In this document: in pieces, positions 3,683 to 63,565 of the stretch
Layout of the letters: the number at the start of each line of letters is the position of its first letter
Numbering within the stretch: the stretch's first letter is position 1
Assembly (NCBI GenBank): GCA_964559915.1
Contig: CAZLJP010000003.1
Coordinates: 17,870 to 81,869 of the forward strand
DNA length: 64,000 nucleotides
From: an uncultured Candidatus Saccharibacteria bacterium
Lineage (GTDB): Bacteria; Patescibacteriota; Saccharimonadia; Saccharimonadales; JALRHH01
Direction of reading: 5' to 3'
Made by a program: the position numbers and the translations under genes
Notes under the pieces: generated by a model
The model's input: only the letters and a program-made list of their open reading frames with translations
What the model was told of the DNA's origin: nothing
Databases searched by the model: none

Positions 3683-3706
3683 AAAGAGCCGGAAACGGCT
3701 CTTTTT
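3683..3706. terminator. Bidirectional intrinsic terminator
   Basis: AAAGAGCCG-GAAA-CGGCTCTTT flanked by A- and T-runs, between convergent rpsT and the 109-aa gene. Confidence 0.7.
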
Positions 3707-10572: not shown

Positions 10573-13232
10573 TACAGTTCACCCCAGTTTTTGCCGATGG
10601 TTGTGTCGACAGTGAGTTTTACGGGTAGTTCGTGCACCGATTCCATCACGTTCTTCAGCATGGCGGCGATAGTTTCTGCCTCACTTTCAGGGCATTCAAC
10701 CAATATTGAATCGTGGATTTGTAGCAATTGCTTGGCACGTCCGCCTGCTAACTTTTCATCCAATGTGACCATGGCAAGTTTCATAAGATCTGCTTCTGTG
10801 CCCTGAATTGGCATATTAATTGCTGCTCGTTCGGCGGCTTGGCGCACAATAAAATTAGCCGAATTAACATCGGGTGTGGGGCGGCGACGACCAAACAGTG
10901 TCTCTACATAGCCGTCCTTGTGTGCTTTTTCTTTGAGACTATTCATGTAATCAAGCAGTGGTTTGCGCAGCTCAAAATACTTATCAATAAAGTGTTTGGC
11001 AGCTACAAAATCCATACCTGTTGCAGCACTTAGTCCATGTGGGCTCATCCCATACAGCACTCCAAAATTAATAACCTTAGCGTCGCGTCGCATCTGTTTA
11101 GTGACTTCGTCTGGCTGGCGGTTATAGACCTGTGCGGCCGTAGCAGTATGAATATCTGCGCCATTATTGAACATTTCCATAAGCTCGGTGTCGTTTGCCA
11201 AGTAAGCTGCGAGGCGCAGTTCAAACTGGCTGTAATCAGCACTAACGAGCACATTACCCTTGCCGGCTACAAAAGCCGTGCGGATATGTTTGCCTAAGTC
11301 TGTTCTGACAGGAATGTTCTGAAGATTAGGGTCATTGCTGCTTAGACGGCCAGTCTGGGCAACCGTCATAGCAAAGGTGGTGTGCAATCGTGAATGCTCA
11401 TCTACCATTGTTGGTAGTGTGTCGACATAGGTACTCTTGAGCTTAGTGAGCTCACGGTAGTGAGTAATAAGGTCGATAATTGGGTGAGCTGCACGGAGTT
11501 TATCCAGCTCGTTGGCTGCGGTAGAATAGCCGGTCTTACCCTTTTTAACACCTTGCGTTGGCAGACCAAGTTTTACAAACAACACCTCGGCTAGTTGTGC
11601 CGGACTGCTGATATTAAACTCGTCGTCGGCATGGCCATATATCTGTTGCTCTACATCGCTAATTTGTTCTTCGAGCTGGCCAGACATCTTGTTCAGGTAA
11701 TCGGTATCAAGTTTTATGCCCTCGTACTCCATACGTGCGAGCACAGCAATGACTGGCCATTCAATCGTCCGAGCCAGCTCGGCAACCTTGGGCATTGCAG
11801 CCAAATCTTTGGTCTGCTTAGCGGCTATTTGACGAATAACTTGGGCCAGTTCTGGAGCGTGCGTCACAAGTTGTTCTGGGTCGAGGTCATCCAGGTTGCC
11901 TTCATAGCCAAGCTCCGTAAAAGCTAGTTCGCTGAGTGACAAATCCTTGCGTAGAGCATTAATCAAAAAAGCACCGATTTGCGTGTCATGTGCCACTCCC
12001 TGCACATCAACGCCCAGCTCATAACAGATTTGCAGTGTGTTCTTGATATCATGACCGACCTTGCCAATAGTGGGATTTATTAGTGCATCCTTCAATGTTT
12101 CAACAACTTTTGATGCAGACAATGTGTTCAGCTGCAATGTATACAGTTCGTCCTCATTTGGGCTGAGTAACAATGTTTCAGGCCCACGACCGTGCCTACC
12201 AGCAGCCCTGCCGTAGAGCACCACTTGGCGTGATTTTTTGAGGCCATCAGCTACGACCGAGAGCTGATTATCGCTACTAATGATGGTGTTTTTGGGCAGT
12301 GTCCCTAGCTGAAAATCATCATTCTGAGGCGAACCGGCAGCATCTGTCATAATCATGACTTCCGGTAGTTGTCTGACAAGGGTACGGAATTCAAATTTCT
12401 GTAATAAATCGCGGATTTTCTCTGGCTCGCATTTGTTGACGTCCAGAGCTTTGCGGTCAAGCGTTACGGGCGCATCAGTCCATATGGCAGCAATTTGTTT
12501 GCTCAGGTAGGCTGAGTCTTTACCGGCTTCGAGCTTTTTGCGCGTACCGTCTTTTATTAGCGCCAGGTTTTCATAGACACCGTCTAGCGTTTCATACAAT
12601 TTAAGTAACTCGATGGCGCCCTTCTCGCCCACTCCGGGTACACCTGGTATATTATCGGAGCTATCGCCCATTAATGACTTGAGGTCTAGGAATTGGTCCG
12701 GACGAATGCCATACTTGGCAGTAAAGCTTTCGGGGCTATACAGCTCGATGTTACTCAAACCCTTCTTCAGCGCATACACGTGCACGAGCGGGTCAATCAA
12801 CTGCAACATATCCATGTCAGAGGTGACGAGTAGCGTTTCAATGTCTTCTTTGGTAGCCTGGACAGCCAAAGTGCCCATAATATCGTCGGCCTCGTAGTCA
12901 TCAAACTCATATAATGGCCAGCCAAATGCACCTAGTAGCTCATGGAGCATGGGAATCTGAGTATAAAAATCAGCTGGCGCAGGTTTGCGGCCAGCCTTAT
13001 ATGCTGGATAAAGTTCTAAGCGTCGGCGAATATTAGTTTTGGGCTTATCCCAGGCAACACAAACATAATCTGGCTTGAGCTTCTTGATGACCTCAAGTGC
13101 CATAACTGCAAAGCCATATACACCACCAGTTGCCACACCGTCACGCGTGGCCAAATTAGGCATTGCGTAATAGCCTCTATAGAACACTGATTTACCGTCA
13201 ATAACAACTAGTCTCTTGCGCTTCTCAGCCAT
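10572..13232 (-). CDS. polA: DNA polymerase I
   Basis: 886 aa with 5'-nuclease N-terminus, motif A DYSQFELR, motif B RRDAKVINFGVLYGMS and motif C QIHDSILVE. Confidence 0.95.
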   Translation of the reverse strand: MAEKRKRLVVIDGKSVFYRGYYAMPNLATRDGVATGGVYGFAVMALEVIKKLKPDYVCVAWDKPKTNIRRRLELYPAYKAGRKPAPADFYTQIPMLHELLGAFGWPLYEFDDYEADDIMGTLAVQATKEDIETLLVTSDMDMLQLIDPLVHVYALKKGLSNIELYSPESFTAKYGIRPDQFLDLKSLMGDSSDNIPGVPGVGEKGAIELLKLYETLDGVYENLALIKDGTRKKLEAGKDSAYLSKQIAAIWTDAPVTLDRKALDVNKCEPEKIRDLLQKFEFRTLVRQLPEVMIMTDAAGSPQNDDFQLGTLPKNTIISSDNQLSVVADGLKKSRQVVLYGRAAGRHGRGPETLLLSPNEDELYTLQLNTLSASKVVETLKDALINPTIGKVGHDIKNTLQICYELGVDVQGVAHDTQIGAFLINALRKDLSLSELAFTELGYEGNLDDLDPEQLVTHAPELAQVIRQIAAKQTKDLAAMPKVAELARTIEWPVIAVLARMEYEGIKLDTDYLNKMSGQLEEQISDVEQQIYGHADDEFNISSPAQLAEVLFVKLGLPTQGVKKGKTGYSTAANELDKLRAAHPIIDLITHYRELTKLKSTYVDTLPTMVDEHSRLHTTFAMTVAQTGRLSSNDPNLQNIPVRTDLGKHIRTAFVAGKGNVLVSADYSQFELRLAAYLANDTELMEMFNNGADIHTATAAQVYNRQPDEVTKQMRRDAKVINFGVLYGMSPHGLSAATGMDFVAAKHFIDKYFELRKPLLDYMNSLKEKAHKDGYVETLFGRRRPTPDVNSANFIVRQAAERAAINMPIQGTEADLMKLAMVTLDEKLAGGRAKQLLQIHDSILVECPESEAETIAAMLKNVMESVHELPVKLTVDTTIGKNWGEL

Positions 13233-22950: not shown

Positions 22951-24438
22951 TTATTGCGTATGTAGATTGAGGAAATCATCGGCTCGATAGTACATAATGC
23001 GCTTTTGGTCTGGATCAAGCCGATGTAGCCGCTGCACAATACTACGCATGCCAGGCTTTGTTTTGAGCACCGCTTCGTGGCGCTCGATAAATTTCCAGTA
23101 CAAGCCGTCCCACACATTAGCCCACTCACCTCTTGTGTAGTCGCTTTTATCCATCAACATTTTGCTGGTACCGATGTACGGGCCGCCTTCTAGTGTGGTG
23201 TCGTCTGCAAACTGTCCGAGCGCATAGATATTTGGTACTAATGACCAGTCTTGAGTATCAACGCACAACTCCTTAAACCACCGGTAGATATCGCCAGGTG
23301 TGATTTCACATAATGTCATGAGGGTAGCAGCAACATGTAGGCGTTCACTATCGTGCAAATAACCACGGGATAGCGCCTTTTTGACCACATCGTCATAGAT
23401 TGGTATACCGGTATCACCGGTATACCAAGCAGCCGTTAGGCGGCGGCGGGCTTGTAGCGGATTAGCTTGGCGCAGTTCAGGGCCGCCAACCAAGGAAATA
23501 CCGCGAGTAAACTCGCGCTGACCCAAAATACGGCGAATGAATAATTCTAGGCTAGTGAGTGGTACTGGTTCTGCCGCATGTCGTGCCAGCGCAGCACTGA
23601 CCACTTGTTGTGGGCTTAGCAGGCCAGTATTAAGACTGCTGCTGAGCGCACTGTGATGCAGCCAGGGCGCCTGGCTGTCAATACGGTCATTCTGGGCTGC
23701 AAAGTTGTTCAGCCGATGATGGACAAAATCCTTGAGCCACTGCGCGGCCTCAGCATGGCTAGTGGGCCAGATACAGTCGCTACTGCCAGGATTATCCGGG
23801 AAGTGCTTGGCAACATATTGCGACGCATCAGCTACCCACTTATTGTCGCCAAACACGGGAAAACTTGGCAGCGCCTGATGCGATGCTGGCAGCTTGTCGG
23901 TTATCATCCAGCTACCCCCGACTGGTTTGTAATCGTCAACCAATATGTTGAAACGCTCACGTTGCCACTGATAGAACTCAACAAATGGGTGTGCGTGCCG
24001 CTCGGTAAAATACTGCCTGATTTCTTGCTCTTTTAGATAGAAGTTAGGGCTGGGCAAAAATTGGATTGCTGGCGCATCCTCACCCAACGTTCGGCGAGCA
24101 GCCAGCAGCCCTTTGGTCAAAATCTCATTGCTTGGATCAAACACCATAAGCTGCTCAGAACGACGAACCTTACGCAGCACATCGGTCAGTTGCAACAATG
24201 GGTCAAGTTCTATGTATTCGACTTTTACGCCGGTTGGCCACAATACCTCCTCCACATAGCGACGCATACTGGCCCGCATAGAGATGAGTTTTTGTTTATG
24301 CAGCTGGAGGCGATGGTCCGGGTCAAGCCCAAATGACAAAGAGTCTTCGACCACGATTACCGTATCAACATCAGGCAAATCCTTGGTTGGATACAGCTGA
24401 TGTGGGAATAAAAGCAGTGAGGCTTTAGATGAACTCAT
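22951..24438 (-). CDS. Cryptochrome/photolyase-related protein (DPRP-like)
   Basis: 495 aa. N-terminal LLLFPHQLY and C-terminal FAD-binding-like region resemble the deoxyribodipyrimidine photolyase-related family. Only 3 Cys, so not an Fe-S type. Confidence 0.65.
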   Translation of the reverse strand: MSSSKASLLLFPHQLYPTKDLPDVDTVIVVEDSLSFGLDPDHRLQLHKQKLISMRASMRRYVEEVLWPTGVKVEYIELDPLLQLTDVLRKVRRSEQLMVFDPSNEILTKGLLAARRTLGEDAPAIQFLPSPNFYLKEQEIRQYFTERHAHPFVEFYQWQRERFNILVDDYKPVGGSWMITDKLPASHQALPSFPVFGDNKWVADASQYVAKHFPDNPGSSDCIWPTSHAEAAQWLKDFVHHRLNNFAAQNDRIDSQAPWLHHSALSSSLNTGLLSPQQVVSAALARHAAEPVPLTSLELFIRRILGQREFTRGISLVGGPELRQANPLQARRRLTAAWYTGDTGIPIYDDVVKKALSRGYLHDSERLHVAATLMTLCEITPGDIYRWFKELCVDTQDWSLVPNIYALGQFADDTTLEGGPYIGTSKMLMDKSDYTRGEWANVWDGLYWKFIERHEAVLKTKPGMRSIVQRLHRLDPDQKRIMYYRADDFLNLHTQ

Positions 24439-24471: not shown

Positions 24472-25134
24472 CTAGGCCACTTGAGCTTGTGGGATATGAA
24501 GTCCGCATTCGGACTTAGTATCAAGTAGCCGCCCCTCTCGTCCCTTGCCTGGTTGGACTAGCGGTTTGTCATCTATCGATTCATAACCCTGATGATACAG
24601 CGGATGATACGGCAGGTCTTCGGCTACAAAGTATTCCTTCACAACCTGCTTTGGCCAGTGTACGACCGGATGGATACGCCACTCGTCGTCTCTGCCCACA
24701 AATCCGTGAGCGTTTTCGGCTCTATTTGCAGTCTGGTCCGCTCTAATACCCGTTAGTAGTGCGTCCACCTCTAACTCATTAATGGCTTCAGATAGCGGGT
24801 TAAGCTTAGTGTGCCGACGGTATGCACTCAAATCCTTTTCCCATAGTTGTGTGGCAAAAATAGTGTCGATAACAAGGTCGTCTGGACGATAGCTAATAGC
24901 AGTAAATCCCAAACGTTTCTCTAGGTTTTGCCTGTGAACATGCGTTTCGGGCAACCAAAAGCCCGTATCTATAGTAATAATGGGTACTTCTACGCCGCTC
25001 TTTTGAATGAGTGTTGGCAGCAACGCAGACTCTGCGCCAAAACTTGATAGTGCATATAACCCCTCTCCAAAATCTTCGCGAGATTGACGGATTACCTCTA
25101 TTGAGTATTCTTCATATTCTTTGTAATGTGACAT
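24472..25134 (-). CDS. cysH: Phosphoadenosine phosphosulfate (PAPS/APS) reductase
   Basis: SSFGAESALL, ITIDTGFWLPETH, LTGIRADQ, YHPLYHQGYESIDD and C-terminal ECGLH catalytic motif. AGGAG RBS. Confidence 0.8.
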   Translation of the reverse strand: MSHYKEYEEYSIEVIRQSREDFGEGLYALSSFGAESALLPTLIQKSGVEVPIITIDTGFWLPETHVHRQNLEKRLGFTAISYRPDDLVIDTIFATQLWEKDLSAYRRHTKLNPLSEAINELEVDALLTGIRADQTANRAENAHGFVGRDDEWRIHPVVHWPKQVVKEYFVAEDLPYHPLYHQGYESIDDKPLVQPGKGREGRLLDTKSECGLHIPQAQVA

Positions 25135-25157
25135 TGTTTTCTCCTAAATATATAAAA

Positions 25158-25185
25158 AGACCCCTTGGCTGTTGCCGTGGGGTCT
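25158..25185 (-). terminator. Intrinsic terminator / candidate attenuator between argS and cysH
   Basis: Minus strand reads AGACCCC-(14-nt loop)-GGGGTCT followed by TTTTTATATATTT. The T-run ends about 10 nt before the cysH RBS. Confidence 0.6.
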
Positions 25186-25207
25186 TCTAGGAATCTAGGT
25201 GTAAATA

Positions 25208-25276
25208 TTATGAATCACAGCAACAGCAAGAACAGTTGTCCATGCAACACATCATTACTGTTGTGGTTTGTTTCAT
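25208..25276 (-). CDS. Polycysteine micro-ORF (22 codons), candidate leader peptide
   Basis: ATG..TAA encodes MKQTTTVMMCCMDNCSCCCCDS (7 Cys). Starts 14 nt after the argS stop with no clear SD. Below the ORF-track size cut-off. Confidence 0.35.
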   Translation of the reverse strand: MKQTTTVMMCCMDNCSCCCCDS

Positions 25277-25290
25277 AGTTTTAGTGTACA

Positions 25291-26973
25291 TCACATTTTT
25301 TCTGGTGCAACAATACCTAGAAGACCGAGGCCATCTTTCAGGGTATCAGCATAGGTGCGTACGAGACTTAGACGCTCTGCTTCACGGACATCACCAATAA
25401 CCCGGTTCTGCTCGTAAAAACGATTAAAGGTCTGCGCAAGTTCATATAGATAGGTGCAAATGTGGTGCGGCATTAAACTGGCAGTTGCATTAGCGACTAC
25501 CTCGGGGTATTCAGTCAATTTACGTACCAAACTACGCTCACCTGCTTCAAGACTATTTACAGAAATACCTTTCTGGGCAGCTTTAGCCAGAATACTTCGC
25601 GCACGAGCATGTGCGTACTGCAGGTACGGCCCACTATTACCTTCCAACGCCACTGATTCGAGAGGGTCATATACAACATCGGCGCCTATGCGGTTTTTGA
25701 GGAAGGCATATTTAACTGCTGCAAGAATTATGGATTCGTCTTGTGCCTTGCCACTAGCCTGGCCAGCTTCACGGGCAGCCGCCAAGATATCCAACGCACT
25801 GACAATATTGCCTTTACGGCTACTCATCTTTACACCACCAGACAGCTTAACTACGCCGTGCGTCAGGTGTTGCGTGCGACTAATTGGCTCGGGCTGAAAC
25901 TGCTCAATGCTTTTGAGTACAACTTGCATGTATTGGTCTTGTTCGTTGGCGGTAATCACGATTGAGTGGTCAAATCGATAATCGTTCCATTTTGTTTCCA
26001 ACAGGCCAACTTCCTTAGCCTCGTAGGTTGGCAAACCTTCTGAGTTGATAAATACGCGGGTATGTAGCCCGTAGTCCTCGCCATTGAACACCACTGCGCC
26101 GTCACTTTTGATGTATACCTCAGGGTGTTCTACGACCGTAGCAATGCCCAGCGGGGTCACTTCGCTCTCGGGTATGGTCCGTGTGAACGGAATTACGCCG
26201 AGTTGATTATACAAAGTCTTGAAGTAATCGTAGCTCCATTGTCGAACAGCCCAATATATCTGCGCAAACGCCGATTCATGGTCATTATCAGCATGGATTG
26301 CATACACTTTCTTGTTTACAGCAATAATTTCTGCCCTGGCAGTTTCGTCATCTTCATAAGCATTGTTGCCTTGAACGTACATCTCACCCAACCAGGCATT
26401 CTTGTCACGTAATATCCGGACGTCTCCGGCTGCACCAATACCCAGTTTTTCTGGATACTCGCCTTCCAAGTATTTGATAATAGCCCATAAACTTTTGCCT
26501 ACGTGCAGGCCTACATCACCACCGTAGTTCAGACGAATCGTCTCTGCTCCGCTACGCTCAATCAGGCGTGCAATAGCATCACCAACCAGTGTGGTGTACA
26601 GATGGCCCGCATGAAGTGGCTTCAATGGATTGGGGTCAGAATATTCTACTAACACCTTCTGCTTGGATGGCTCCGGGATAGATAACACTGATTCTAAGTC
26701 TATGAGTAATGCTTCATCAGTAAGTGTAATGTTCAAGAAACCTGGTCCCGCTACCTCGATACTTTTCACGGTTTTCACAGAGTTTTCACGAATTTTCACG
26801 GCCAGAGCTTCTGCGATTTCGCGGGGGTTCTTGCCCACTTGTTTGCTCAGCTGCAAAGCAATGTTGGTCGCATACTCACCAAATTGTTCATCCGGACGTG
26901 TCAGTTCAGGCTCAACAGTAATGCTGAACAAATCTGTACATGCAGTTGCAATAGCCCGACGAATCTCTTTCAT
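25291..26973 (-). CDS. argS: Arginine--tRNA ligase
   Basis: 560 aa, class I HAGH signature (PLHAGHLYTT), KMSSRKG loop, anticodon-binding C-terminus. Confidence 0.95.
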   Translation of the reverse strand: MKEIRRAIATACTDLFSITVEPELTRPDEQFGEYATNIALQLSKQVGKNPREIAEALAVKIRENSVKTVKSIEVAGPGFLNITLTDEALLIDLESVLSIPEPSKQKVLVEYSDPNPLKPLHAGHLYTTLVGDAIARLIERSGAETIRLNYGGDVGLHVGKSLWAIIKYLEGEYPEKLGIGAAGDVRILRDKNAWLGEMYVQGNNAYEDDETARAEIIAVNKKVYAIHADNDHESAFAQIYWAVRQWSYDYFKTLYNQLGVIPFTRTIPESEVTPLGIATVVEHPEVYIKSDGAVVFNGEDYGLHTRVFINSEGLPTYEAKEVGLLETKWNDYRFDHSIVITANEQDQYMQVVLKSIEQFQPEPISRTQHLTHGVVKLSGGVKMSSRKGNIVSALDILAAAREAGQASGKAQDESIILAAVKYAFLKNRIGADVVYDPLESVALEGNSGPYLQYAHARARSILAKAAQKGISVNSLEAGERSLVRKLTEYPEVVANATASLMPHHICTYLYELAQTFNRFYEQNRVIGDVREAERLSLVRTYADTLKDGLGLLGIVAPEKM

Positions 26974-47481: not shown

Positions 47482-47569
<88 letters not shown>

Positions 47570-54156: not shown

Positions 54157-54233
54157 TGGTGAACCCGGCAGGAGTCGAACCTGCGACCTCTTGTACCGCA
54201 AACAAACGCTCTATCCAGCTGAGCTACGGGTCC
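54157..54233 (-). tRNA. tRNA-Arg (anticodon read as GCG)
   Basis: 77 nt. Acceptor GGACCCG/CGGGTTC, D-arm GCTC-AGCTGGATA-GAGC with A20, anticodon loop TTGCGGT, T-arm GCAGG-TTCGACT-CCTGC, encoded CCA. Confidence 0.85.
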
Positions 54234-54326
54234 ACATTTGGCGATAATTCGCCTCTGAATTATTAACTTTGCATATCGTAGACGCTGGTAGAGCAACGCT
54301 CATAATTATTTCTGGCCTATTGGCCG

Positions 54327-54348
54327 CCAGCTGAGCTACGGGTCCACA
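54327..54348 (-). repeat. Duplicate of the tRNA-Arg 5' end (22 nt including 3 upstream nt)
   Basis: CCAGCTGAGCTACGGGTCCACA is identical to 54215-54236. Confidence 0.75.
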
Positions 54349-54409
54349 ATTCACGTTTTTATACGCGAAACAGAGGCTATCTTAGCACAAATAACAGGTT
54401 AAATCCAGC

Positions 54410-55024
54410 CTAGAACCTAATCTTGCTCATGAGGCGGTCGACGGCGTCTGGCTCTTTGTCCTCGTGCGGGAGATAGCTGCCAAGTGCATTGAGAATTGCA
54501 TCCTCGGATTTGGGGTCATAAAACACTGTGATTGGTGGCAAGAACCGTTTAAGTGGGAGTAATAGTACAGAGGGAAGTGGACCTTCTTCAAGCACAGCAA
54601 ACGACTTAAACTCCTGGAAACTGTAGTGTTTGGTGTCTATTTGTAGGCCATGTGCGTCAATGCTGTAGTTAAGTACTCGTGGGGGGCGAGCTGCAAAGAT
54701 TCCAAAAGCCAGTCCAGCTACACCTACCATACCTGCGGCCATGATGTCCTTGCCGCCAATAAAGTAGATGGTGACAACTAGAGCCGACAGAATAAGGCCG
54801 AGGCCAACAAACCAACCGAGGCCCTTGGTATGTTCGATGTACTCTGAAGCAGTCCAGGATATCGGGCCAGCCGGGACGGAAGCAGGGGCAGGCATGAGCG
54901 CCGCATCATCTGATTCGGCTGTAAAGTTCCAGCTCGTGTCTGCTGGAGTATTCTGGCCGGGTTGTATCACCCGTGGTTCAGTTGGCGTATCTGCCACCGT
55001 ATTTCCCTCATTAAGTATAAGCAT
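54410..55024 (-). CDS. Hypothetical membrane protein (204 aa)
   Basis: Disordered N-terminus, two TM helices, C-terminal globular part. No motif recognised. Confidence 0.55.
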   Translation of the reverse strand: MLILNEGNTVADTPTEPRVIQPGQNTPADTSWNFTAESDDAALMPAPASVPAGPISWTASEYIEHTKGLGWFVGLGLILSALVVTIYFIGGKDIMAAGMVGVAGLAFGIFAARPPRVLNYSIDAHGLQIDTKHYSFQEFKSFAVLEEGPLPSVLLLPLKRFLPPITVFYDPKSEDAILNALGSYLPHEDKEPDAVDRLMSKIRF

Positions 55025-55090
55025 ATTGTACCTTAGAAAGGCCGCCTCGTTCTACTGCTATATTTCAGGGGTAGTATAAAGGGGATATTC

Positions 55091-55099
55091 TGGTATAAT
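55091..55099 (+). promoter_or_regulatory. Extended -10 promoter for tRNA-Ser(GCU)
   Basis: TGGTATAAT ends 17 nt before the tRNA 5' end. Confidence 0.45.
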
Positions 55100-55116
55100 T
55101 TCTCTCTGTTAGCCAC

Positions 55117-55209
55117 GGAGAGGTACCCAAGTGGCTGAAGGGGACGGTTTGCTAAATCGTTAGGGGGGCGAGAGCTCCCGCGAGGGTTCGAATCCCTCTC
55201 TCTCCGCCA
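55117..55209 (+). tRNA. tRNA-Ser (anticodon GCU)
   Basis: Acceptor GGAGAGG/TCTCTCC, anticodon loop TTGCTAA, long variable arm, T-arm GAGGG-TTCGAAT-CCCTC, encoded CCA. Confidence 0.9.
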
Positions 55210-55336
55210 GTTTCTTTTACAAAATATCAAACCAAGCTGTTTATCTGCTGTTTGGGATTTTGAGAGGAAGAAACGACCAAAGGGTGAAAGAAAAGTGATG
55301 TATCACTTTTTGGAAGCCGACCGTCGGTTCTGACGA

Positions 55337-55426
55337 GGAAGGGTGTCCGAGTGGTTGAAGGAAACGGTCTTGAAAACCGTCGTGCCGGCAACGGTACCGA
55401 GGGTTCGAATCCCTCCCCTTCCGCCA
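55337..55426 (+). tRNA. tRNA-Ser (anticodon UGA)
   Basis: Acceptor GGAAGGG/CCCTTCC, anticodon stem ACGGT/ACCGT with loop CTTGAAA, long variable arm, encoded CCA. Confidence 0.9.
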
Positions 55427-56967: not shown

Positions 56968-57075
56968 TAGACTTTTGCGTTGTCCGCTTTGACGGACAGT
57001 TACCTGGACACTTGGCCAAGAAAGTCGCAAAAGCTCACTACGGGACAGATTCTCTAAGAGAAATCTTGAGCAAAT

Positions 57076-57104
57076 AAAAAACCCTCCGGCCGGAGGGTTT
57101 TTTA
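57076..57104. terminator. Bidirectional intrinsic terminator
   Basis: AAAAAACCCTCCGG/CCGGAGGGTTTTTT between convergent hsp20 and pilin-like gene P1. Confidence 0.8.
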
Positions 57105-57118
57105 AATTGTCTAACTTT

Positions 57119-57535
57119 TTATTCGCTGCCGCTAATGGCTTTGCCAAGTACAAACTTGACGATAACCTGTGCCAAGGCAACAATCACAAGGCCAATGATG
57201 GCGTACAGAATGGTATTCTTTGCGCTTTGTACATTGTTACTATCACCAGATGAAGTGATGTACTTCAAGCCACCGATGATAATCATGATGACTGAGACTA
57301 CGCCGACTACAAGAGAGAAGATAGTAATGACGGTTTTGATAAGGCCATTGATTTTGTCGTTGGCGCCATCAGTACTCTCGGTACAGTCACTGCCACCACC
57401 AACATCAAAGCTAGCGCCCTGACAGAGGCTGTCTTGGATGTCGTCTGCTGATGCAACAGCAGGGACAAGCAATGGTGCTGCAAACAGGCTAAGTAATAGA
57501 CTGGCTGCGATTAATTTTTTGATTGTTTTTAGCAT
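57119..57535 (-). CDS. T4SS pilin-like protein P1 (138 aa)
   Basis: Signal peptide, Cys-x12-Cys, then IIGGLKYITSSGDSNNVQSAKNTILYAIIGLVIVALAQVIVKFVLG two-helix core. Confidence 0.7.
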   Translation of the reverse strand: MLKTIKKLIAASLLLSLFAAPLLVPAVASADDIQDSLCQGASFDVGGGSDCTESTDGANDKINGLIKTVITIFSLVVGVVSVIMIIIGGLKYITSSGDSNNVQSAKNTILYAIIGLVIVALAQVIVKFVLGKAISGSE

Positions 57536-57608
57536 TTATAATACCTTTCTTATTTCTAATGACTACTTATACCACAGGGTGATGTGCGCGACAAGGCTGG
57601 CATCGGCT

Positions 57609-58022
57609 TTAGCCGGTAGCCTTACCTAGTACAAAATGAACGATAATCTGGGCCATCAATACAATCACCAGACCGACGACGGCATAAATCAAAGTGTTTC
57701 TGGCACTTTTGATGCCGTTGGCGTCGCCACTAGCGGTGATAAACTTCAGGCCGCCTATAATAATCATAATAACCGCTATCACCCCAGCTACCAGGCTCAA
57801 TATTTGCAAAATATTGGCGATTAAATCAGTCAGGTTTGAGCCACTCTCACTGCCATCATCACCACAGCTTGTATCTGCATTAATTGCTCCGATAGTCTCG
57901 CAGGCGGCCTGTTTAGAAGCCTCTCCGGCTGCGGCTATATATGGTGTCTGGGCAGCAGCAAGGGCAGGTGACAGACAGAAGGCAAACAACAAGCTAACTA
58001 CAAGTACTATGCGCTGCTTCAT
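57609..58022 (-). CDS. T4SS pilin-like protein P2 (137 aa)
   Basis: Signal peptide, Cys-x11-Cys, core IIGGLKFITASGDANGIKSARNTLIYAVVGLVIVLMAQIIVHFVLG. Confidence 0.7.
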   Translation of the reverse strand: MKQRIVLVVSLLFAFCLSPALAAAQTPYIAAAGEASKQAACETIGAINADTSCGDDGSESGSNLTDLIANILQILSLVAGVIAVIMIIIGGLKFITASGDANGIKSARNTLIYAVVGLVIVLMAQIIVHFVLGKATG

Positions 58023-58429
58023 TAGAGTTTTCCTACAACAAACACTACGAGCGTTCGTGCCAACACAATTACAACCAAGCCAATCACGGCATACAGAATG
58101 GCGTTCCGAGCGCTGCTGACTTTGCCAGGGTCGCCCGTCGATACCATAAACTGAATACCCGCTATCACAATAATGATAGTTGCTGCTATGCCAGCGATGA
58201 TGGCAATAATATTGGCAATTTTGGTAATAATGCCGTCGGGGCCATAAATGGTGTTGTCGCCTGGGTCTTGTGAGGTTTCGCGGTCCTGACAGACAGATGA
58301 ACTACTGGCTTCGCCACTATTACAGGCTTGGTCAAAGATAGCACTTTCGGCAGAAACAACCGACAGACCACCCGCTGATACCACAAAACCCGTCAGCAGG
58401 CTCAATGCAAGAAGCTTCAAGCGACTCAT
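58022..58429 (-). CDS. T4SS pilin-like protein P3 (135 aa)
   Basis: Signal peptide, Cys-x10-Cys, core VIAGIQFMVSTGDPGKVSSARNAILYAVIGLVVIVLARTLVVFVVG. TAATG overlap with P2. Confidence 0.7.
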   Translation of the reverse strand: MSRLKLLALSLLTGFVVSAGGLSVVSAESAIFDQACNSGEASSSSVCQDRETSQDPGDNTIYGPDGIITKIANIIAIIAGIAATIIIVIAGIQFMVSTGDPGKVSSARNAILYAVIGLVVIVLARTLVVFVVGKL

Positions 58430-58707
58430 CAGACGCGACCAACCACAAAAGTTACAATAGTAAAGGCGGATGCCGCTATAACTAAGCCGATGAGAGCATA
58501 GATAATGGTGTTCTTGGCCTTGGCAACTTCGGCGGCTTCACCTCTAGAGAGCACATATTTGAGGCCTGCTATAACTAACATCAAAATCGCCAGTGCTGCC
58601 GCAAATCCGAACACCACTTGTAGTACTGTATTCAGTGAGCCTTGGCCTAATTCTGCCTTGGGTACATCAAAGCTATCATCAGTTAGGGCAAAGAAGATGT
58701 TGCTCAT
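58429..58707 (-). CDS. T4SS pilin-like protein P4 (92 aa, no signal peptide, no Cys)
   Basis: Core VIAGLKYVLSRGEAAEVAKAKNTIIYALIGLVIAASAFTIVTFVVG. TGATG overlap with P3. Confidence 0.65.
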   Translation of the reverse strand: MSNIFFALTDDSFDVPKAELGQGSLNTVLQVVFGFAAALAILMLVIAGLKYVLSRGEAAEVAKAKNTIIYALIGLVIAASAFTIVTFVVGRV

Positions 58708-59075
58708 GAGGTAAACTGCCCCCCGATGAACGACACCACACCCGTAGCAATTATCGCAATCACCAGACCAATCAGGGCATTCATAATAGATTGACGGGCA
58801 GCGCTGGCTTTATCCGGCTCACCCTGGCTAGTGATAAACAAAATAGCGCCATATATTATGTAACCCACAGCAACAATCGCACCGATACGCAGCATAATAT
58901 CAACCACGGCTAGTAAGATAGCCGATATGTCCCCAGGGAAGTTAATTATCGGGCTACAAGTACCTGATGAATCTGTCTCACCAGGTAAATATTCATACCA
59001 GGTTGGTAATATAGATATGCCGCCAGAGCCGGGCTCACAAGCAGCAGCAAAGTTAGTAATAGAATCCAAAGCCAC
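58704..59075 (-). CDS. T4SS pilin-like protein P5 (123 aa, no signal peptide)
   Basis: Cys-x26-Cys, core IYGAILFITSQGEPDKASAARQSIMNALIGLVIAIIATGVVSFIGG. ATGA overlap with P4. Confidence 0.65.
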   Translation of the reverse strand: MALDSITNFAAACEPGSGGISILPTWYEYLPGETDSSGTCSPIINFPGDISAILLAVVDIMLRIGAIVAVGYIIYGAILFITSQGEPDKASAARQSIMNALIGLVIAIIATGVVSFIGGQFTS

Positions 59076-59487
59076 TAATTACCCCTCCTGGAACCAACCA
59101 TTGTAATAATGAATAACCAAATATAAGCAGAAGCAACGCAAGCAGGGCGTTGGTAATCTTGCTCTTGGCGGCCTGAACTTTGCTAGAATCTGCCCCAGCA
59201 GCAGAATACTGAACCCCACCCCAAACGATTACGGCAATTATGACCACGGCTGCAATAGCAGAAAGAGCATTAGTTATGGTCACTACTATTTTAATAATGC
59301 CGCAATTGTCTTCGTTAAGTTGTTGTCCGGAGTCAACTTTGCAATCTTCTTCGGATCGTTCAACACCTACTTGATCCAGACTGTTTGTGCTATCAGCATA
59401 TACTAATGACGGACCGACAGAGAGCAAGGACAGACCAAAGATAGACAGTGCAGTGAACGACAATAATTTATGTTTTAGAACGCGCAT
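59053..59487 (-). CDS. T4SS pilin-like protein P6 (144 aa, most divergent)
   Basis: Signal peptide, Cys-x12-Cys, core VWGGVQYSAAGADSSKVQAAKSKITNALLALLLLIFGYSLLQWLV. 23-nt overlap with P5. Confidence 0.6.
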   Translation of the reverse strand: MRVLKHKLLSFTALSIFGLSLLSVGPSLVYADSTNSLDQVGVERSEEDCKVDSGQQLNEDNCGIIKIVVTITNALSAIAAVVIIAVIVWGGVQYSAAGADSSKVQAAKSKITNALLALLLLIFGYSLLQWLVPGGVISGFGFYY

Positions 59488-59496
59488 TTACCGACT

Positions 59497-59502
59497 ATTA
59501 TA
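59497..59502 (-). promoter_or_regulatory. -10 box for the pilin operon (near-leaderless layout)
   Basis: TATAAT on the minus strand, 9 nt before the P6 ATG, no SD. Confidence 0.4.
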
Positions 59503-59582
59503 TGGTGTTTTAGATATTTCTCAACATTATGGGCTAATCAGATTGCTCAAACCATTCTCCTCCATTACAATTAAGCGTAATC

Positions 59583-60518
59583 ATGATGTTCTCTCGCAAG
59601 CTGCGACTTCTAGCTATTCCACTGCTCCTCTTCTGGGGTACTATCAGCACACTCAGTGTTGCACTACCATCCCACCATGTATACGCAGCAGAGACGAGCG
59701 ATAGTGAAAGTGAAGATACTGCCACTCTCGGTAAGGACGTAAAGTGTGAGTTCTCGCTTAACGCAGCAATAGGCTGGTTTCTATGTCGCTTTATTGACCT
59801 GATTGACGGAACCCTCAATTGGCTCGACCAACAGGTGAATGCTCTGCTATTTGTAGACAACAAGTACTACTCGACCGAGAATATTGGTGATACATGGAGA
59901 GCTATGCGCAACATTGCGCTCCTCTTGCTTGTTCCTATGATGCTTGTCATGGTGATAGGAACGGCAGTGGGCATTGGACCGTTTGATGCATACACCGTTA
60001 AAAAAGCCTTGCCCCGCATGGTTTTGGCAGTGATGTTCATTGTGTTGTCTTTGCCCATCTGCCAATTTGCCGTTCAGCTAAGTAACGGGGTTGGCAACGG
60101 TCTGGGTAATCTGATTCTTTCCGTTACCCCGCCAGATGCAAGAGTAGAATCCATTAATCAGATATTTAATGGGCAAGACACTACCGACAATGGAACTAAT
60201 AACTTGTTGGGGCTCGGGTTATTGGTTGGTGGAGCGGCTGCCGGTTTTGGGGTTGGACTGACTATCTTCCTCTTTGCAGCGACTGCCGTATTGGGGCTGT
60301 TTATGGGTTTTGTCGTGTTAATTATGCGAGAGGTGTTGCTAGTAACGCTTATCGTCATAGGACCCATAGCTATAATTGCCTGGATATTCCCAGGCAATGA
60401 CAAGTTATGGAGTATCTGGAGAACTACATTCATCGCAATGCTTATGATGTACCCGCTGATAGCCTTACTGATAGCAGCGGGTAAGTTTGTAGCTGGAATA
60501 TCGGGGACACCAACATAA
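59583..60518 (+). CDS. VirB6/TrbL-like polytopic membrane protein (311 aa)
   Basis: Signal peptide plus 6 or more TM helices with Gly-rich loops. Position in the T4SS cluster supports the call. Assignment by topology only. Confidence 0.5.
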   Translation: MMFSRKLRLLAIPLLLFWGTISTLSVALPSHHVYAAETSDSESEDTATLGKDVKCEFSLNAAIGWFLCRFIDLIDGTLNWLDQQVNALLFVDNKYYSTENIGDTWRAMRNIALLLLVPMMLVMVIGTAVGIGPFDAYTVKKALPRMVLAVMFIVLSLPICQFAVQLSNGVGNGLGNLILSVTPPDARVESINQIFNGQDTTDNGTNNLLGLGLLVGGAAAGFGVGLTIFLFAATAVLGLFMGFVVLIMREVLLVTLIVIGPIAIIAWIFPGNDKLWSIWRTTFIAMLMMYPLIALLIAAGKFVAGISGTPT

Positions 60519-61720
60519 TGATAGATATTTTCTTCGCAGCTACAGCAGATTCAGTAGCCGATTCAGATTTAGTCAGAAAGCTTATTCAACTCATAGCATA
60601 TGCGGCTCCATACTTTCTCATACCATGGACATTCAAAGCTGGTATGGGCGTGTTTGGTGCCCTAACGGGCGCTGTCAATGACCGCAGCAGGGGCGGTTTT
60701 GATAGACTTAGAAAAGCTCGTCAAAACAAACGCGCAGCAACTTGGCAAAGAGCAAGGAACTTTGAAAGGTTTAAAGCTCCTGGTTTACGAAAGCTTAATA
60801 CTGCAATTGGCGCAGGAGCGAACCCCAGAAGCATGCTGGGTGGAAAGACGGGTGTTTTAGCTGCTCGTGAAGGTGGACGACTAGCTCAGGCTGCTGCCGA
60901 CCTCGAGAACGATAAGATATTCCAAGCGCATAAAAATGACGATAAGTTCTTGGCTGCACTGGCAAATCGCCAATTGGCAACAGATAATCTAAAAAGTGCA
61001 CAAGCAAAGCTTACTGAAGCACGAGCATCTGGTGACCAAGATAAGATTAATGCTGCACAGGCAGATGTGGATGCCCGAACTTACGGACTTACCGCTGCCG
61101 GGCGAGTCGCTTCGAAGAATATGAGATCTACGCAGGCAGCCGCTTTTGATGCGTGGACCAAAACCGGATACGAAGTATCGGCTGGGCAAAAGGGCTATGA
61201 GGAGATTCGAAGCACTGCAGAAAAGATATCAGGTGGTGATCCGGGTGTTATGAGCTCAATGATGAACCAGGCACAATACAACCTAAAGGGTGCTCTGCGC
61301 CCAGACCTGGGTGGTCTTAATAACGGTGCCGTTGGAACTCGTGAAACTATTAAATCTGGTATTCGTAAGCTTAATAACTATGGTCGTGGGCAAGGCAAAA
61401 CAGAGCTATACCATGGCGGTGCCGAAGCATGGCTAGGCGTCAGCTCAGCAGATGAAGCTTTCGGCCCAAAGCTAGGTCAAATAATGGCTTCGGGTGGCGA
61501 ACAGCAATTGAAAGATGTAGCCGAATGGCATGGTATGCTCCGAGCTGATTATCAAGGAGCTACTGATGGTAACAAGCTAGAGATTATGAAACAGATAGAA
61601 GCTATAGAGTCTGCTCGAGTTGGCGGAACTCCAGAAGAAAGAGAGACCTTTGCTAAGAAACTTGCTGAAAATAACGCTTCGGCAAGAACTTACGTTGATC
61701 GATCAGAGCTAGATAAATGA
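60518..61720 (+). CDS. Hypothetical T4SS-associated protein (400 aa), one N-terminal TM then a helical Ala/Lys/Gln-rich domain
   Basis: TAATG overlap with the VirB6-like gene. Could be the cytoplasmic continuation of a split VirB6-like protein. Confidence 0.5.
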   Translation: MIDIFFAATADSVADSDLVRKLIQLIAYAAPYFLIPWTFKAGMGVFGALTGAVNDRSRGGFDRLRKARQNKRAATWQRARNFERFKAPGLRKLNTAIGAGANPRSMLGGKTGVLAAREGGRLAQAAADLENDKIFQAHKNDDKFLAALANRQLATDNLKSAQAKLTEARASGDQDKINAAQADVDARTYGLTAAGRVASKNMRSTQAAAFDAWTKTGYEVSAGQKGYEEIRSTAEKISGGDPGVMSSMMNQAQYNLKGALRPDLGGLNNGAVGTRETIKSGIRKLNNYGRGQGKTELYHGGAEAWLGVSSADEAFGPKLGQIMASGGEQQLKDVAEWHGMLRADYQGATDGNKLEIMKQIEAIESARVGGTPEERETFAKKLAENNASARTYVDRSELDK

Positions 61721-61764
61721 CCATACTATTGACTTAATTGCTATATTGTGCTAATGTTTATATC

Positions 61765-62634
61765 ATGGAATCCGTTCCTCCCCAGAACCAAGAAGATGAC
61801 ATTAATCAAACTCTGGTGATACCCCCAACGCCAGAGGCTATTGCCGAATCTAGCGAACAAGCAAATAGAGAATCGATTGGCCGTAGAATCGGTGCTTTAT
61901 TGGTAGATGTCCCCCAGGGTTTTGTTGAGCGAAAGTTAGCACGCGCAGAAACATACGCATATCGTGCACAGAAATCCCACAGAACACGGTCGGATACGCT
62001 AAAACCAGGTGAGAAAATATCAAAACGAATCGATATTACAAAGCAACAGCTAAAGGGAGAAATTAGCTCACATGATGCACGTATCCAGCGCCTCAAAACC
62101 AAAGCGAACACTGACCTCAGTTATAGAGAGATTAAACGTACTCAACGAAACCTAAAAGTTACGGCTTTTCTAGCTGGTATTGTTGGGGTGCGTCGTGATG
62201 TTGAAGCTCCCCAGAGTATCGAACCAGCGACAATCAATCCTGCTAACATCGAGCTTGGTGAATCTTACAAAGAAAGGTTAGAGCGCGAAGCTCAAGAGCG
62301 TGCAGAAAGGCGCGATAACAAGCACAAAGAGGGTGGAGGGAAAAGCGTAAAGCTCACTTCTGAGCAGAAAGCCGTACTTTCGATTGACCATATGGAGGCT
62401 CTGAATTCCCGTATTAAGCCCGAAGCTGACGTGATTACCAAAAGACCAGCACGAACCGAAGAAGAAAAAGAAGCAAAGCGTAGAAATTTAACAGACAAAC
62501 GATTGGAGATAGTTAAAGACTACCTCGAAGATAACGGTATTGATGCGAGTAATCCTGCGGTTATTCAGGAGATATCAAGGCGCTATCTTATTATTGCCGA
62601 GGCTCATGATTGGCTAAGCACAACTGTAGAATAA
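61765..62634 (+). CDS. Hypothetical highly charged protein (289 aa)
   Basis: Start set at ATG 61765 (MESVPPQ); the ORF track begins at TTG 61738. Lys/Arg/Glu-rich with one hydrophobic segment VTAFLAGIVGV. Confidence 0.45.
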   Translation: MESVPPQNQEDDINQTLVIPPTPEAIAESSEQANRESIGRRIGALLVDVPQGFVERKLARAETYAYRAQKSHRTRSDTLKPGEKISKRIDITKQQLKGEISSHDARIQRLKTKANTDLSYREIKRTQRNLKVTAFLAGIVGVRRDVEAPQSIEPATINPANIELGESYKERLEREAQERAERRDNKHKEGGGKSVKLTSEQKAVLSIDHMEALNSRIKPEADVITKRPARTEEEKEAKRRNLTDKRLEIVKDYLEDNGIDASNPAVIQEISRRYLIIAEAHDWLSTTVE

Positions 62635-62642
62635 ATAATTCT

Positions 62643-62651
62643 TGCTATACT
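62643..62651 (+). promoter_or_regulatory. Extended -10 promoter for the PrgI-like gene (near-leaderless layout)
   Basis: TGCTATACT ends 8 nt before ATG 62660, no SD. Confidence 0.4.
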
Positions 62652-62659
62652 TAAGCAGT

Positions 62660-63565
62660 ATGGGTACCTACAAAGTAATCCAAGATATTGAGGCCGATGA
62701 CAAATTAATCGGCTGGATGACGCCACGTCAGGCAATTTATGCCACGATTGTGGTTATTTCTGGTGCTATTGGTTTTTTGTTCATCACCAAGGGTGCGTGG
62801 TGGGCAGCTATACCGCTATTACCACACATGATACTATTTGCAGTTTTGGCTGGGCCGTTCATGCATGATCAGCCCGCCGAAGTGTGGCTTTTGGCCAAGA
62901 TTCAGTTCTTCCTAAAACCTCGTAAACGCATATGGGACCAGAGTGGCATATCCGAGCTAGTAACCATAACTGTGCCCAAAAAGATTGAGCGGATACTCAC
63001 CGATGGGCTCAGCCAAACAGAGGTCAAAAGCCGATTACAGGTCCTGGCTAATGTAATAGATAGTCGCGGTTGGTCAACCAAAAATATTGCCACAAACCCA
63101 TATGGGCCAACGGGGTACGCATTTGCAAATAGTGATCGCTTGGTTGATACCAGCCAACTACCCCAACAAGTTCCAGCCATTGATGTGACAGACCAGGAAG
63201 ATATCCTGGATGAACAGATGAATCCAACCGCGCAGCATTTACAGCAAATGATTGCCCAATCGTCTCAGGCCCATAGAGAACAGGTGATTAAGACCATGCA
63301 TCATCCGATAAAGAAGCCTACTAAAAAAGATGAGCCGGCTCAGCAGTGGTTCGCAAACGATAGTAATACTACTACCGGCACTACTAAGCCAACAGCCACA
63401 AAACATCGACAGCCCGCAACCACACCAGCTCAACCAATAAACCCCGTCGTACAGCAATTAGCAAACAACGATGACCTCAATATAGCCACAATTGCTAGGC
63501 AGGCAAACAAGGCGACTGGCCAGTCAGAACTTGGCAATAATGAAGTGGTGATTTCACTCCACTAG
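62660..63565 (+). CDS. PrgI/VirB3-like T4SS membrane protein with Thr/Pro/Gln-rich tail (301 aa)
   Basis: YKVIQDIEADDKLIGWMTPRQAIYATIVVISGAIGFLF followed by a second TM matches my recollection of the PrgI-family N-terminus. Start set at ATG 62660. Confidence 0.55.
   Translation: MGTYKVIQDIEADDKLIGWMTPRQAIYATIVVISGAIGFLFITKGAWWAAIPLLPHMILFAVLAGPFMHDQPAEVWLLAKIQFFLKPRKRIWDQSGISELVTITVPKKIERILTDGLSQTEVKSRLQVLANVIDSRGWSTKNIATNPYGPTGYAFANSDRLVDTSQLPQQVPAIDVTDQEDILDEQMNPTAQHLQQMIAQSSQAHREQVIKTMHHPIKKPTKKDEPAQQWFANDSNTTTGTTKPTATKHRQPATTPAQPINPVVQQLANNDDLNIATIARQANKATGQSELGNNEVVISLH

Follow-up and report, generated by a model that had tools for sequence, protein, structure and literature searches.

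How would a bacterium of the Saccharimonadales, a group usually seen as amino-acid auxotrophs and thought unable to make cysteine, control a gene of sulfur assimilation? The question is raised by a short, Cys-rich open reading frame (micro-ORF) that precedes a cysH-like phosphoadenylyl sulfate (PAPS) reductase gene in a 64-kb stretch of DNA from an uncultured Candidatus Saccharibacteria bacterium. We refer to this stretch, at its full length, as the window; all features of the cysH locus described below lie on its minus strand. A first-pass annotation of this DNA had proposed that the micro-ORF and the intrinsic terminator behind it form a ribosome-mediated attenuator that senses Cys-tRNA. We find that the leader is a real, conserved cis-regulatory element rather than a product of chance. 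We further consider it probable (roughly 70%) that it functions as a ribosome-mediated transcription attenuator, situated on a leaderless transcript, that responds to cysteine and controls the PAPS reductase gene.

A conserved Cys-rich leader in front of cysH

The leader occupies the space between the 3' end of argS (TGA stop at 25291; Pfam matches tRNA-synt_1d, DALR_1 and Arg_tRNA_synt_N) and the PAPS reductase gene (24472..25134, with its ATG at 25134; Pfam PF01507, E = 2e-30). Both the ORF list and a reading of the sequence place a micro-ORF of 22 codons plus stop at 25208..25276 (ATG 25276..25274, TAA 25210..25208), and this encodes MKQTTTVMMCCMDNCSCCCCDS, a peptide with seven Cys. An intrinsic terminator (25146..25187), composed of GAAGACCCC, a loop, GGGGUCUUU and a U-rich tail, was recovered by folding and by our own hairpin scan. 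The hairpin begins 20 nucleotides (nt) past the end of the micro-ORF and consists of a 5' arm, (GA)AGACCCC (25187..25179), a 14-nt loop, ACGGCAACAGCCAA (25178..25165), that includes a 3-bp mini-stem (GGC/GCC), and a 3' arm, GGGGUCU(UU) (25164..25156), which is followed by UUAUAUAUUU. The Shine-Dalgarno (SD) sequence of the PAPS reductase gene, AGGAG (25141..25145), abuts the U-tract and leaves no space for a separate cysH promoter; a promoter between terminator and cysH was ruled out on this ground. Every element of this layout agrees with the description in the first-pass annotation.

Within the 64-kb window, the run of four Cys codons is the sole instance in any frame, the micro-ORF is the most Cys-dense small ORF and no further Cys-rich intergenic ORFs were found. 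The leader region folds far more stably than shuffled sequences (z = -6.1), and our own scan for hairpins followed by U-tracts ranked the leader terminator as the most stable of the window (-21.6 kcal/mol). A standard terminator scan is restricted to loops of 3-8 nt and overlooks this hairpin because its loop exceeds 8 nt; a standard promoter scan also overlooked the candidate leader promoter with its weak -35 element, and both were replaced by scans of our own. When 24900..25500 was scanned against Rfam 15 (E up to 10), only sub-threshold chance matches to unrelated small RNAs were returned. A riboswitch or T-box (SAM/S-box or Cys T-box) was ruled out, given that no Rfam family matched.

Relatives of the locus were found through a CysH protein search, contig look-ups and a metagenome scan. 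With duplicates merged (L007 = L008 = L097; L094 = L095), the clade set with readable upstream DNA comprises eight loci: the window, L001, L002, L004, L007, L094, L099 and L100. In each of the eight (CysH 46-100% identical), cysH has a Cys-rich micro-ORF, a terminator and an SD in front of it, and a ninth locus, L096 (CysH 49%), begins at the terminator, leaving only terminator and SD visible. The closest named CysH homologues are from metagenome-assembled genomes designated 'Candidatus Saccharimonadales bacterium', which lends the Patescibacteria assignment indirect support; the gene content of the window (pilin of type IV secretion systems, PrgI, CarS-like gene, amidinotransferase) is compatible with that assignment but is no proof of it. 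As a control set, we took 78 cysH loci of at most 39% identity from a profile search with a 9-sequence CysH alignment, the phyla and groups represented being Planctomycetota, Myxococcota, Xanthomonadales and Verrucomicrobiota. The arrangement was found in 0 of these 78 distant loci, and a lenient rule yields a Cys-rich small ORF in two of them, one being MIPYFFCQQLCSRGCRN, about 170 nt upstream of a Myxococcales cysH (L025). The leader is likewise absent at five other PAPS reductase loci that belong to other lineages or contexts (P0005 and P0007-P0010), and a scan of viral contigs found no relatives.

Conservation of the micro-ORF where the argS-cysH order is kept had been fixed beforehand as a point on which the proposal could fail. 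The two relatives with argS upstream, L001 (CysH 77% identical; micro-ORF MKRITTVMMCCGNNCSCCCCDS) and L002 (55%; MKQITTVMMCCANNCSCCCCDS), keep the frame and all seven Cys codons. In this window family, the leader nucleotides are 81-85% identical, compared with 59-75% for argS, cysH and the third gene. The Cys codons are invariant across the three loci down to the choice between UGU and UGC, which points to a constraint on the RNA, and changes are limited to a small hairpin loop (codons 12-13), wobble positions and spacers. Two A->G changes in L001, one in the terminator arm and one at the first loop base, each convert an A-U pair into a G-U pair; the terminator loop is otherwise conserved in L001 and L002.

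Cys-rich micro-ORFs also precede cysH where the upstream gene is a different one, and they encode MKQTIQQQCMCPCTMCTCC in L004 (CysH 49% identical; GTG start), MKQLAADQIGTQTIQITNRGGMCSQCPCAGCPL in L007 (47%), MSSLKSKQICMRSCMPEGRCCD in L094 (51%), MNLVFHSRSCMCSRFQDAGCCCDC in L099 (46%, on an 896-kb contig) and MKLVDSHFDMCSQQFYAGCCSI in L100 (48%). Across families, length (19-33 aa), number of Cys (3-7), Cys content (12-32%), sequence and Cys spacing all vary. At least two consecutive Cys codons are present in the window, L001, L002, L004, L094, L099 and L100, and L007 has only C-x-x-C-x-C-x-x-C. The terminator 5' arm lies 17-32 nt from the stop codon, and the 21-33 nt between the terminator and the cysH start codon are filled by the SD. 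The upstream neighbours differ (argS, ornithine carbamoyltransferase, an unknown gene, a divergent aroA-type gene and a sigma-like gene), indicating that the leader travels with cysH. The families have in common the strings AUGUGUAGCC and GCCGGCUG and an MKQ start, and are thus diverged homologues rather than independent inventions.

Micro-ORF and terminator are linked by base complementarity. The Cys codons 17-20 (GCUGUUGCUGUG, 25227..25216) are complementary over 12 contiguous positions, including one G-U pair, to CACGGCAACAGC (25179..25168), which spans the final base of the terminator 5' arm and most of the loop. This pairing, already noticed in the first-pass annotation, has an RNAduplex energy of -27.4 kcal/mol, a value attained by 0.4% of codon-shuffled ORFs (p = 0.004; the corresponding value for L094 is 0.002). 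We term these segments region 2 (25216..25227), identified by duplex prediction and folding and invariant in L001 and L002, and region 3 (25168..25179), identified by duplex prediction and its place in the conserved loop; they would be the 5' and 3' strands of an antiterminator. Such pairing is predicted, by nesting and by a steric argument, to exclude a closed terminator stem.

The pairing proposed for the window has counterparts, of other sequence, in the remaining leader families. In all of them the 3' end of the ORF, with its last Cys codons, is complementary to part of that family's own terminator, located, depending on the family, where the 5' arm ends, in the loop or where the 3' arm begins. 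The ORF and terminator segments are GCCGUUGCUGCG and CGCAGUAACAGGC in L094, CCGGC(U)GUUGC and GCAACGCCGG in L100, CCGGCUGCUG and CACCAGCCGG in L099, CCGGCUGC and GUAGCCGG in L007, and CCUGCUGCUAGCG and CGCCAGCCAGCGGG in L004, with pairing energies of -18.6 to -27.4 kcal/mol when the window is included. In a swap test of this co-variation, cognate partners averaged -21.9 kcal/mol versus -18.0 kcal/mol for non-cognate ones, and only 2 of 720 permutations were as good. The leader hairpins of all families (-11.4 to -19.3 kcal/mol, the window having -19.3) are followed by at least four U. Ordinary terminators in this genome have loops of 4-5 nt, compared with loops of 6-14 nt and a complementary segment in the leader terminators. 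Canonical terminators with 4-5 nt loops occur in the window at 57060..57100 on both strands, where a bidirectional terminator (AAAACCCUCCGGCCGGAGGGUUUU) separates convergent genes, and at 3702(+), 54130(-), 53963(-) and 50125(-).

An alignment of the leaders on their start codons revealed a TAnnnT hexamer that ends 6-8 nt 5' of the start codon in 8 of 8 cases, a geometry with a background of 4.7% among all ATGs in the window. This candidate -10 element is TACACT in the window (25283..25288, 6 nt before the micro-ORF AUG), TATACT in L001 and L002, TATCCT in L099, TATAAT in L100 and TATGCT in L007, L094 and L004, the L004 copy being cut by the contig end. A candidate -35 element, TTGCAC, inferred from the sequence, lies within the final argS codons (25305..25310), 16 nt from the -10, and is identical in L001 and L002, argS synonymous sites included. 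In L007, L099 and L100 the candidate -35 is TCGACA at 17 nt, and the L100 promoter layout reads TCGACA-17-TATAAT-7-ATG. Judged by this geometry, transcription probably starts at or adjoining the micro-ORF AUG, and the micro-ORF would open a leaderless mRNA.

The micro-ORF has no SD, as the first-pass annotation had remarked, but the coupling to argS translation that it offered as an explanation did not survive. A leaderless mRNA accounts better for the absence of an SD, because the -10 sits 6-8 nt upstream of the start in all families. The window does have an ATG overlapping the argS stop (TGATG, 25289..25294) with an in-frame extension to 27 aa (MYTKTM...); this ATG is found in the window only, being replaced by TGACG in L001 and TAAAG in L002, and coupling through it and the extended ORF was ruled out for that reason. 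Similar starts are seen at other window genes: TAnnnT stands 6-8 nt upstream of 9 of 56 called gene starts, often as TATACT, an SD-like motif is present at just 21 of the 56 (start calls being crude), and leaderless-looking starts include those at 13232(-), 14649(-), 19726(-) and 45205(-). Many window genes seem, from these motifs, to be leaderless. At the micro-ORF itself, the 5' AUGAA of the putative leaderless RNA (25272..25276) is complementary to UUCAU (25211..25215) just before the stop codon, and a synonymous TCA->TCG change in L002 keeps the pairing as U-G. According to the predicted folds, this pairing could hide the 5' AUG in untranslated RNA.

Predicted folds and a proposed mechanism

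Folding of alternative structures, which the first-pass annotation had recommended, predicts mutually exclusive attenuator folds. In untranslated RNA, the Cys segment pairs instead with codons 4-8, in the window CACAACAGUAA (region 1, 25255..25265, seen in minimum free energy (MFE) folds), which would serve as an anti-antiterminator; the leader thereby takes on the classical layout of 1:2, 2:3 and 3:4 pairings. The effect of translation was modelled by masking a ribosome footprint at each codon (A site -15 to +11), and the outcome depends on this assumed footprint. Nascent transcripts were folded as well, to just inside the terminator 3' arm with the complete hairpin folded separately, because equilibrium folding alone fails for the window family.

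As long as the A site has not passed the first Met/Cys cluster (codons up to ~12-13), nascent RNA forms 10-17 antiterminator pairs; with the ribosome another 2-4 codons along, or on the stop codon, the antiterminator is essentially gone. In L099 the antiterminator also fails to form without a ribosome. At equilibrium, the terminator probability dips at the early Met/Cys codons, to 0.0-0.1 in L094, 0.0-0.3 in L100, 0.2-0.6 in L004 and 0.5-0.6 in the window, where it is minimal at C10-C11; elsewhere it is 0.9-1.0. Stalling at the early Cys/Met codons thus frees the antiterminator in the model and stalling at the late Cys run does not, a result tied to the assumed footprint. The folding points to the early cluster, codons 8-12 (Met Met Cys Cys Met, 25241..25255), as the likely sensor. 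The idea of a ribosome-mediated Cys-tRNA attenuator is supported, with one correction: a ribosome stalled on the four-Cys run itself would block the antiterminator.

We propose that a promoter overlapping the end of argS would start transcription at or beside the AUG of the 22-codon leaderless micro-ORF. In the absence of a ribosome, region 1 would pair with region 2, the terminator would form and transcription would stop before cysH. With ample Cys-tRNA, a ribosome would reach the stop codon and mask region 2, and the terminator would form again. With scarce Cys-tRNA, the ribosome would stall at the early Met-Met-Cys-Cys-Met, masking region 1 and leaving region 2 free to pair with the end of the emerging 5' arm and the loop. 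The terminator would then be blocked, and read-through would allow cysH to be made and, in the window sub-family, would also reach a photolyase-related gene. The attenuator would in this way sense the charging of Cys-tRNA and possibly that of Met-tRNA too. Met codons adjoin the first Cys codons in every family (MMCCM, CMC, MCS and CMRSCM, as AUGUGU or UGUAUG), a pattern by which Met-tRNA may be sensed besides Cys-tRNA; the observation weighs little because the leader families are homologous.

Several observations sit uneasily with this mechanism. Of the seven Cys codons, five, the four-Cys run among them, are at positions where stalling would block the antiterminator; in the folding model the poly-Cys run is the antiterminator strand, and its location is unlike that of a classical sensor. 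L001 and L002 carry a mismatch in the 1:2 pairing with no compensating change, L007 folding is without a clear pattern, and the codon-shuffle p is weak for L004 (0.07) and L007 (0.17) taken alone. Counts of leaders, as their shared strings suggest, overstate independence, the families being homologous. Other sulfate-assimilation genes were not found in the 64-kb window and the best NCBIfam match of CysH, phosphoadenylyl-sulfate reductase, reaches 138.6 bits, below the equivalog cut-off of 154, so that the physiological link to cysteine is assumed. Finally, the window-family terminator (-19.3 kcal/mol) is favoured at equilibrium wherever the ribosome sits (P>=0.5). With the terminator favoured in every state, the switch must be kinetic and co-transcriptional. 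The E. coli trp attenuator is likewise kinetically decided.

A role for the C-terminal poly-Cys run is provided by an elaboration that we regard as unlikely. In this two-zone sensor on a leaderless mRNA, the early Met/Cys cluster would induce cysH when Met- or Cys-tRNA is low, and the poly-Cys run would act as a further level of control, able perhaps to keep the ribosome on region 2 or to make the response graded or band-pass. Were this elaboration true, Saccharimonadales would actively assimilate sulfur via an apparently orphan PAPS reductase and would have tightly coupled transcription and translation. Further genes might then share leaderless Cys micro-ORFs, amounting to a 'Cys ribulon' outside Actinobacteria.

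Known leaders and rival explanations

Leader-peptide attenuation is textbook knowledge for Proteobacteria and Actinobacteria. The window leader shares with the classical attenuators (trpL, hisL, pheL, thrL and ilvL, and trp and ilvB of Actinobacteria; PMC1262725) a leader ORF rich in cognate codons and an intrinsic terminator, and is predicted to share their exclusive 1:2, 2:3 and 3:4 pairings and the decision by the position of the lead ribosome. Unlike them, it would respond to a cysteine signal, its ORF is apparently leaderless rather than SD-led, and its host belongs to the Saccharimonadales. Its region 2 is inside the ORF and itself made of Cys codons, and its region 3 is mostly terminator loop rather than the whole 5' arm.

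Cys-codon leaders have been described in other phyla. In mycobacteria, leaderless poly-Cys small ORFs lift translational repression of cysteine-related operons via stalling at the Cys tract (Canestrari et al. 2020, bioRxiv 10.1101/834739), which bears out a statement in the first-pass annotation. These Ms5788A-type ORFs resemble the window leader in being leaderless (here probably so), in their C-terminal Cys-codon runs and in their position upstream of cysteine or sulfur genes; low cysteine leads to higher expression, as was demonstrated for mycobacteria and as we infer for the window leader. In Ms5788A, however, the stalled ribosome opens an SD-hiding duplex and there is no terminator, whereas the window leader has a canonical terminator for which the Cys run is the antiterminator strand, and the two have no sequence homology and come from different phyla. 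SD sequestration without a terminator is not what we see here, given that all families have a terminator and the SD-covering pairing occurs in the window only.

A terminator does accompany uORFC-8-2, an upstream ORF before cysS in Rhodobacterales that has tandem Cys codons and has been read as ribosome-mediated attenuation (PMC8632094). It too is a predicted ORF whose Cys codons fall within a stem, with a terminator stem and U run behind it and a proposed response to Cys-tRNA. It differs in regulating cysS rather than cysH, in having only two Cys codons, at positions 14-15, and in being alphaproteobacterial (PMC8632094), and neither by sequence nor through Rfam does it match the window leader. 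Cys leader peptides have also been predicted before cys/cbs operons in Mycobacterium, P. acnes and B. longum (Seliverstov et al. 2005, PMC1262725). These candidates are similarly short ORFs with Cys-codon runs near the stop, located before cysteine-synthesis genes, but they are without recognisable terminators and Rho dependence was proposed for them, whereas the window leader has a clear terminator and a predicted antiterminator. The window leader thus seems to join the leaderless Cys micro-ORF of mycobacteria with the terminator/antiterminator of uORFC-8-2, before a different gene and in a different phylum. In the literature on Saccharibacteria and the candidate phyla radiation, our search found no account of leader-peptide attenuation or of this cysH.

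Two rival explanations retain a regulatory leader and change how it works. The location of most Cys codons at the 3' end of the ORF would suit an inverse, pyrBI-like logic, in which a ribosome at the stop codon hinders the terminator, plentiful Cys-tRNA leads to expression of cysH, and a stall in the poly-Cys run brings about termination. Stalling there does favour the terminator in the folding model, and the stop codon is just 17-32 nt from the terminator 5' arm, a distance for which there is precedent: in E. coli, a ribosome that terminates at a stop codon less than about 30 nt from a terminator can partly repress it (PMC4824070). We consider this improbable, however, because it neither needs nor explains the co-varying complementarity between ORF 3' end and terminator, because the first Cys codons that the ribosome meets sit in the zone that favours read-through, and because a ribosome at the stop reaches ~10 nt beyond it, short of the core stem. 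Shutting off a sulfur-assimilation enzyme in cysteine shortage would also make little physiological sense. Translational attenuation in the manner of Ms5788A, with access to the SD controlled in a full-length mRNA and a hairpin that is structural rather than a terminator, has in its favour that the experimentally proven Cys leaders work in this way and are also leaderless with C-terminal Cys runs. In the MFE fold of the window, moreover, CCUAGAU pairs with AUUUAGG to lengthen the hairpin at its base, so that the SD is partly covered. That pairing is lost in L002, however, the SD lies 12-25 nt past the hairpin in the other families, and all families have a GC-rich stem followed by at least four U, a terminator signature used elsewhere in the genome; we accordingly find this explanation quite improbable.

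The remaining two dispense with attenuation. A free-standing Cys-rich micro-protein that binds metal or takes part in redox chemistry, with a terminator of its own and cysH expressed by constitutive leak-through, would be compatible with a conserved ORF that probably has its own promoter, and some leader peptides are said to act in trans. But the number and spacing of Cys, the length and the other residues vary between families, unlike those of a metal-binding site, the micro-ORF has no Pfam match, and it always lies directly upstream of cysH with no promoter space between terminator and SD. The nucleotide-level invariance, UGU/UGC choice included, also points to the RNA rather than the peptide, and we hold a micro-protein to be very improbable. 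A chance ORF beside a hairpin that merely terminates argS is hardly credible. In the window, L001 and L002 the terminator does come after argS, but the same layout stands behind four other kinds of upstream gene, one of them divergently transcribed, the four-Cys run is the only one in 64 kb and conservation of the leader exceeds that of the flanking genes.

Regulated genes and genomic context

The protein encoded by cysH has a single Cys and carries a C-terminal catalytic ECGLH motif (...KSECGLH) that is invariant in the alignment. A photolyase-related gene (22951..24438, minus strand; Pfam DPRP and, weakly, FAD_binding_7) follows cysH after 33 nt, without an intervening terminator. The order argS, leader, PAPS reductase, photolyase-related gene is common to the window, L001 and L002, and the photolyase-related gene does not adjoin cysH in L007, L094, L099 or L100; it is probably co-regulated with cysH in the window sub-family only. 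Its product has three Cys only, and would presumably be without the four-Cys iron-sulfur site of FeS-type bacterial cryptochromes and photolyases. A PAPS reductase homologue that is 45% identical, in L005/L006, is without the leader and resides in a polysaccharide-type cluster, where its neighbours are a fused ATP-sulfurylase/adenylylsulfate kinase, a pyruvyl transferase and glycosyltransferases, suggesting a different role for this paralogue.

If cysteine-responsive attenuation is the correct reading, the leader would be a conserved cysteine attenuator and, as far as our literature search showed, the first found in Patescibacteria. Reduced-genome and mostly uncultured epibionts would then use the ribosome to monitor tRNA charging, with translation coupled to transcription. 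They would also make regular use of leaderless translation, many window genes sharing the promoter-to-start geometry of the leader. A Saccharimonadales clade would have its lone PAPS reductase tied to cysteine supply, which would offer a handle on sulfur metabolism in these organisms. Cys-codon leaders with a proper terminator would extend beyond the single predicted cysS motif of Rhodobacterales, and annotation would gain a recognisable, so far unannotated element in the form of a Cys-rich micro-ORF with a large-loop terminator.

Elsewhere, the window contains no tRNA-Cys gene; tRNA-Arg(GCG), tRNA-Ser(GCU) and tRNA-Ser(UGA) cluster at 54157..55426, and tRNA-Ser(CGA) is at 47482. Other window genes include a CarS-like gene and an amidinotransferase. 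At 57119..63565, a TrbC/VirB2-type pilin of type IV secretion systems and a PrgI-family protein stand among ORFs without Pfam matches, which suggests a type IV secretion or conjugation-like locus.

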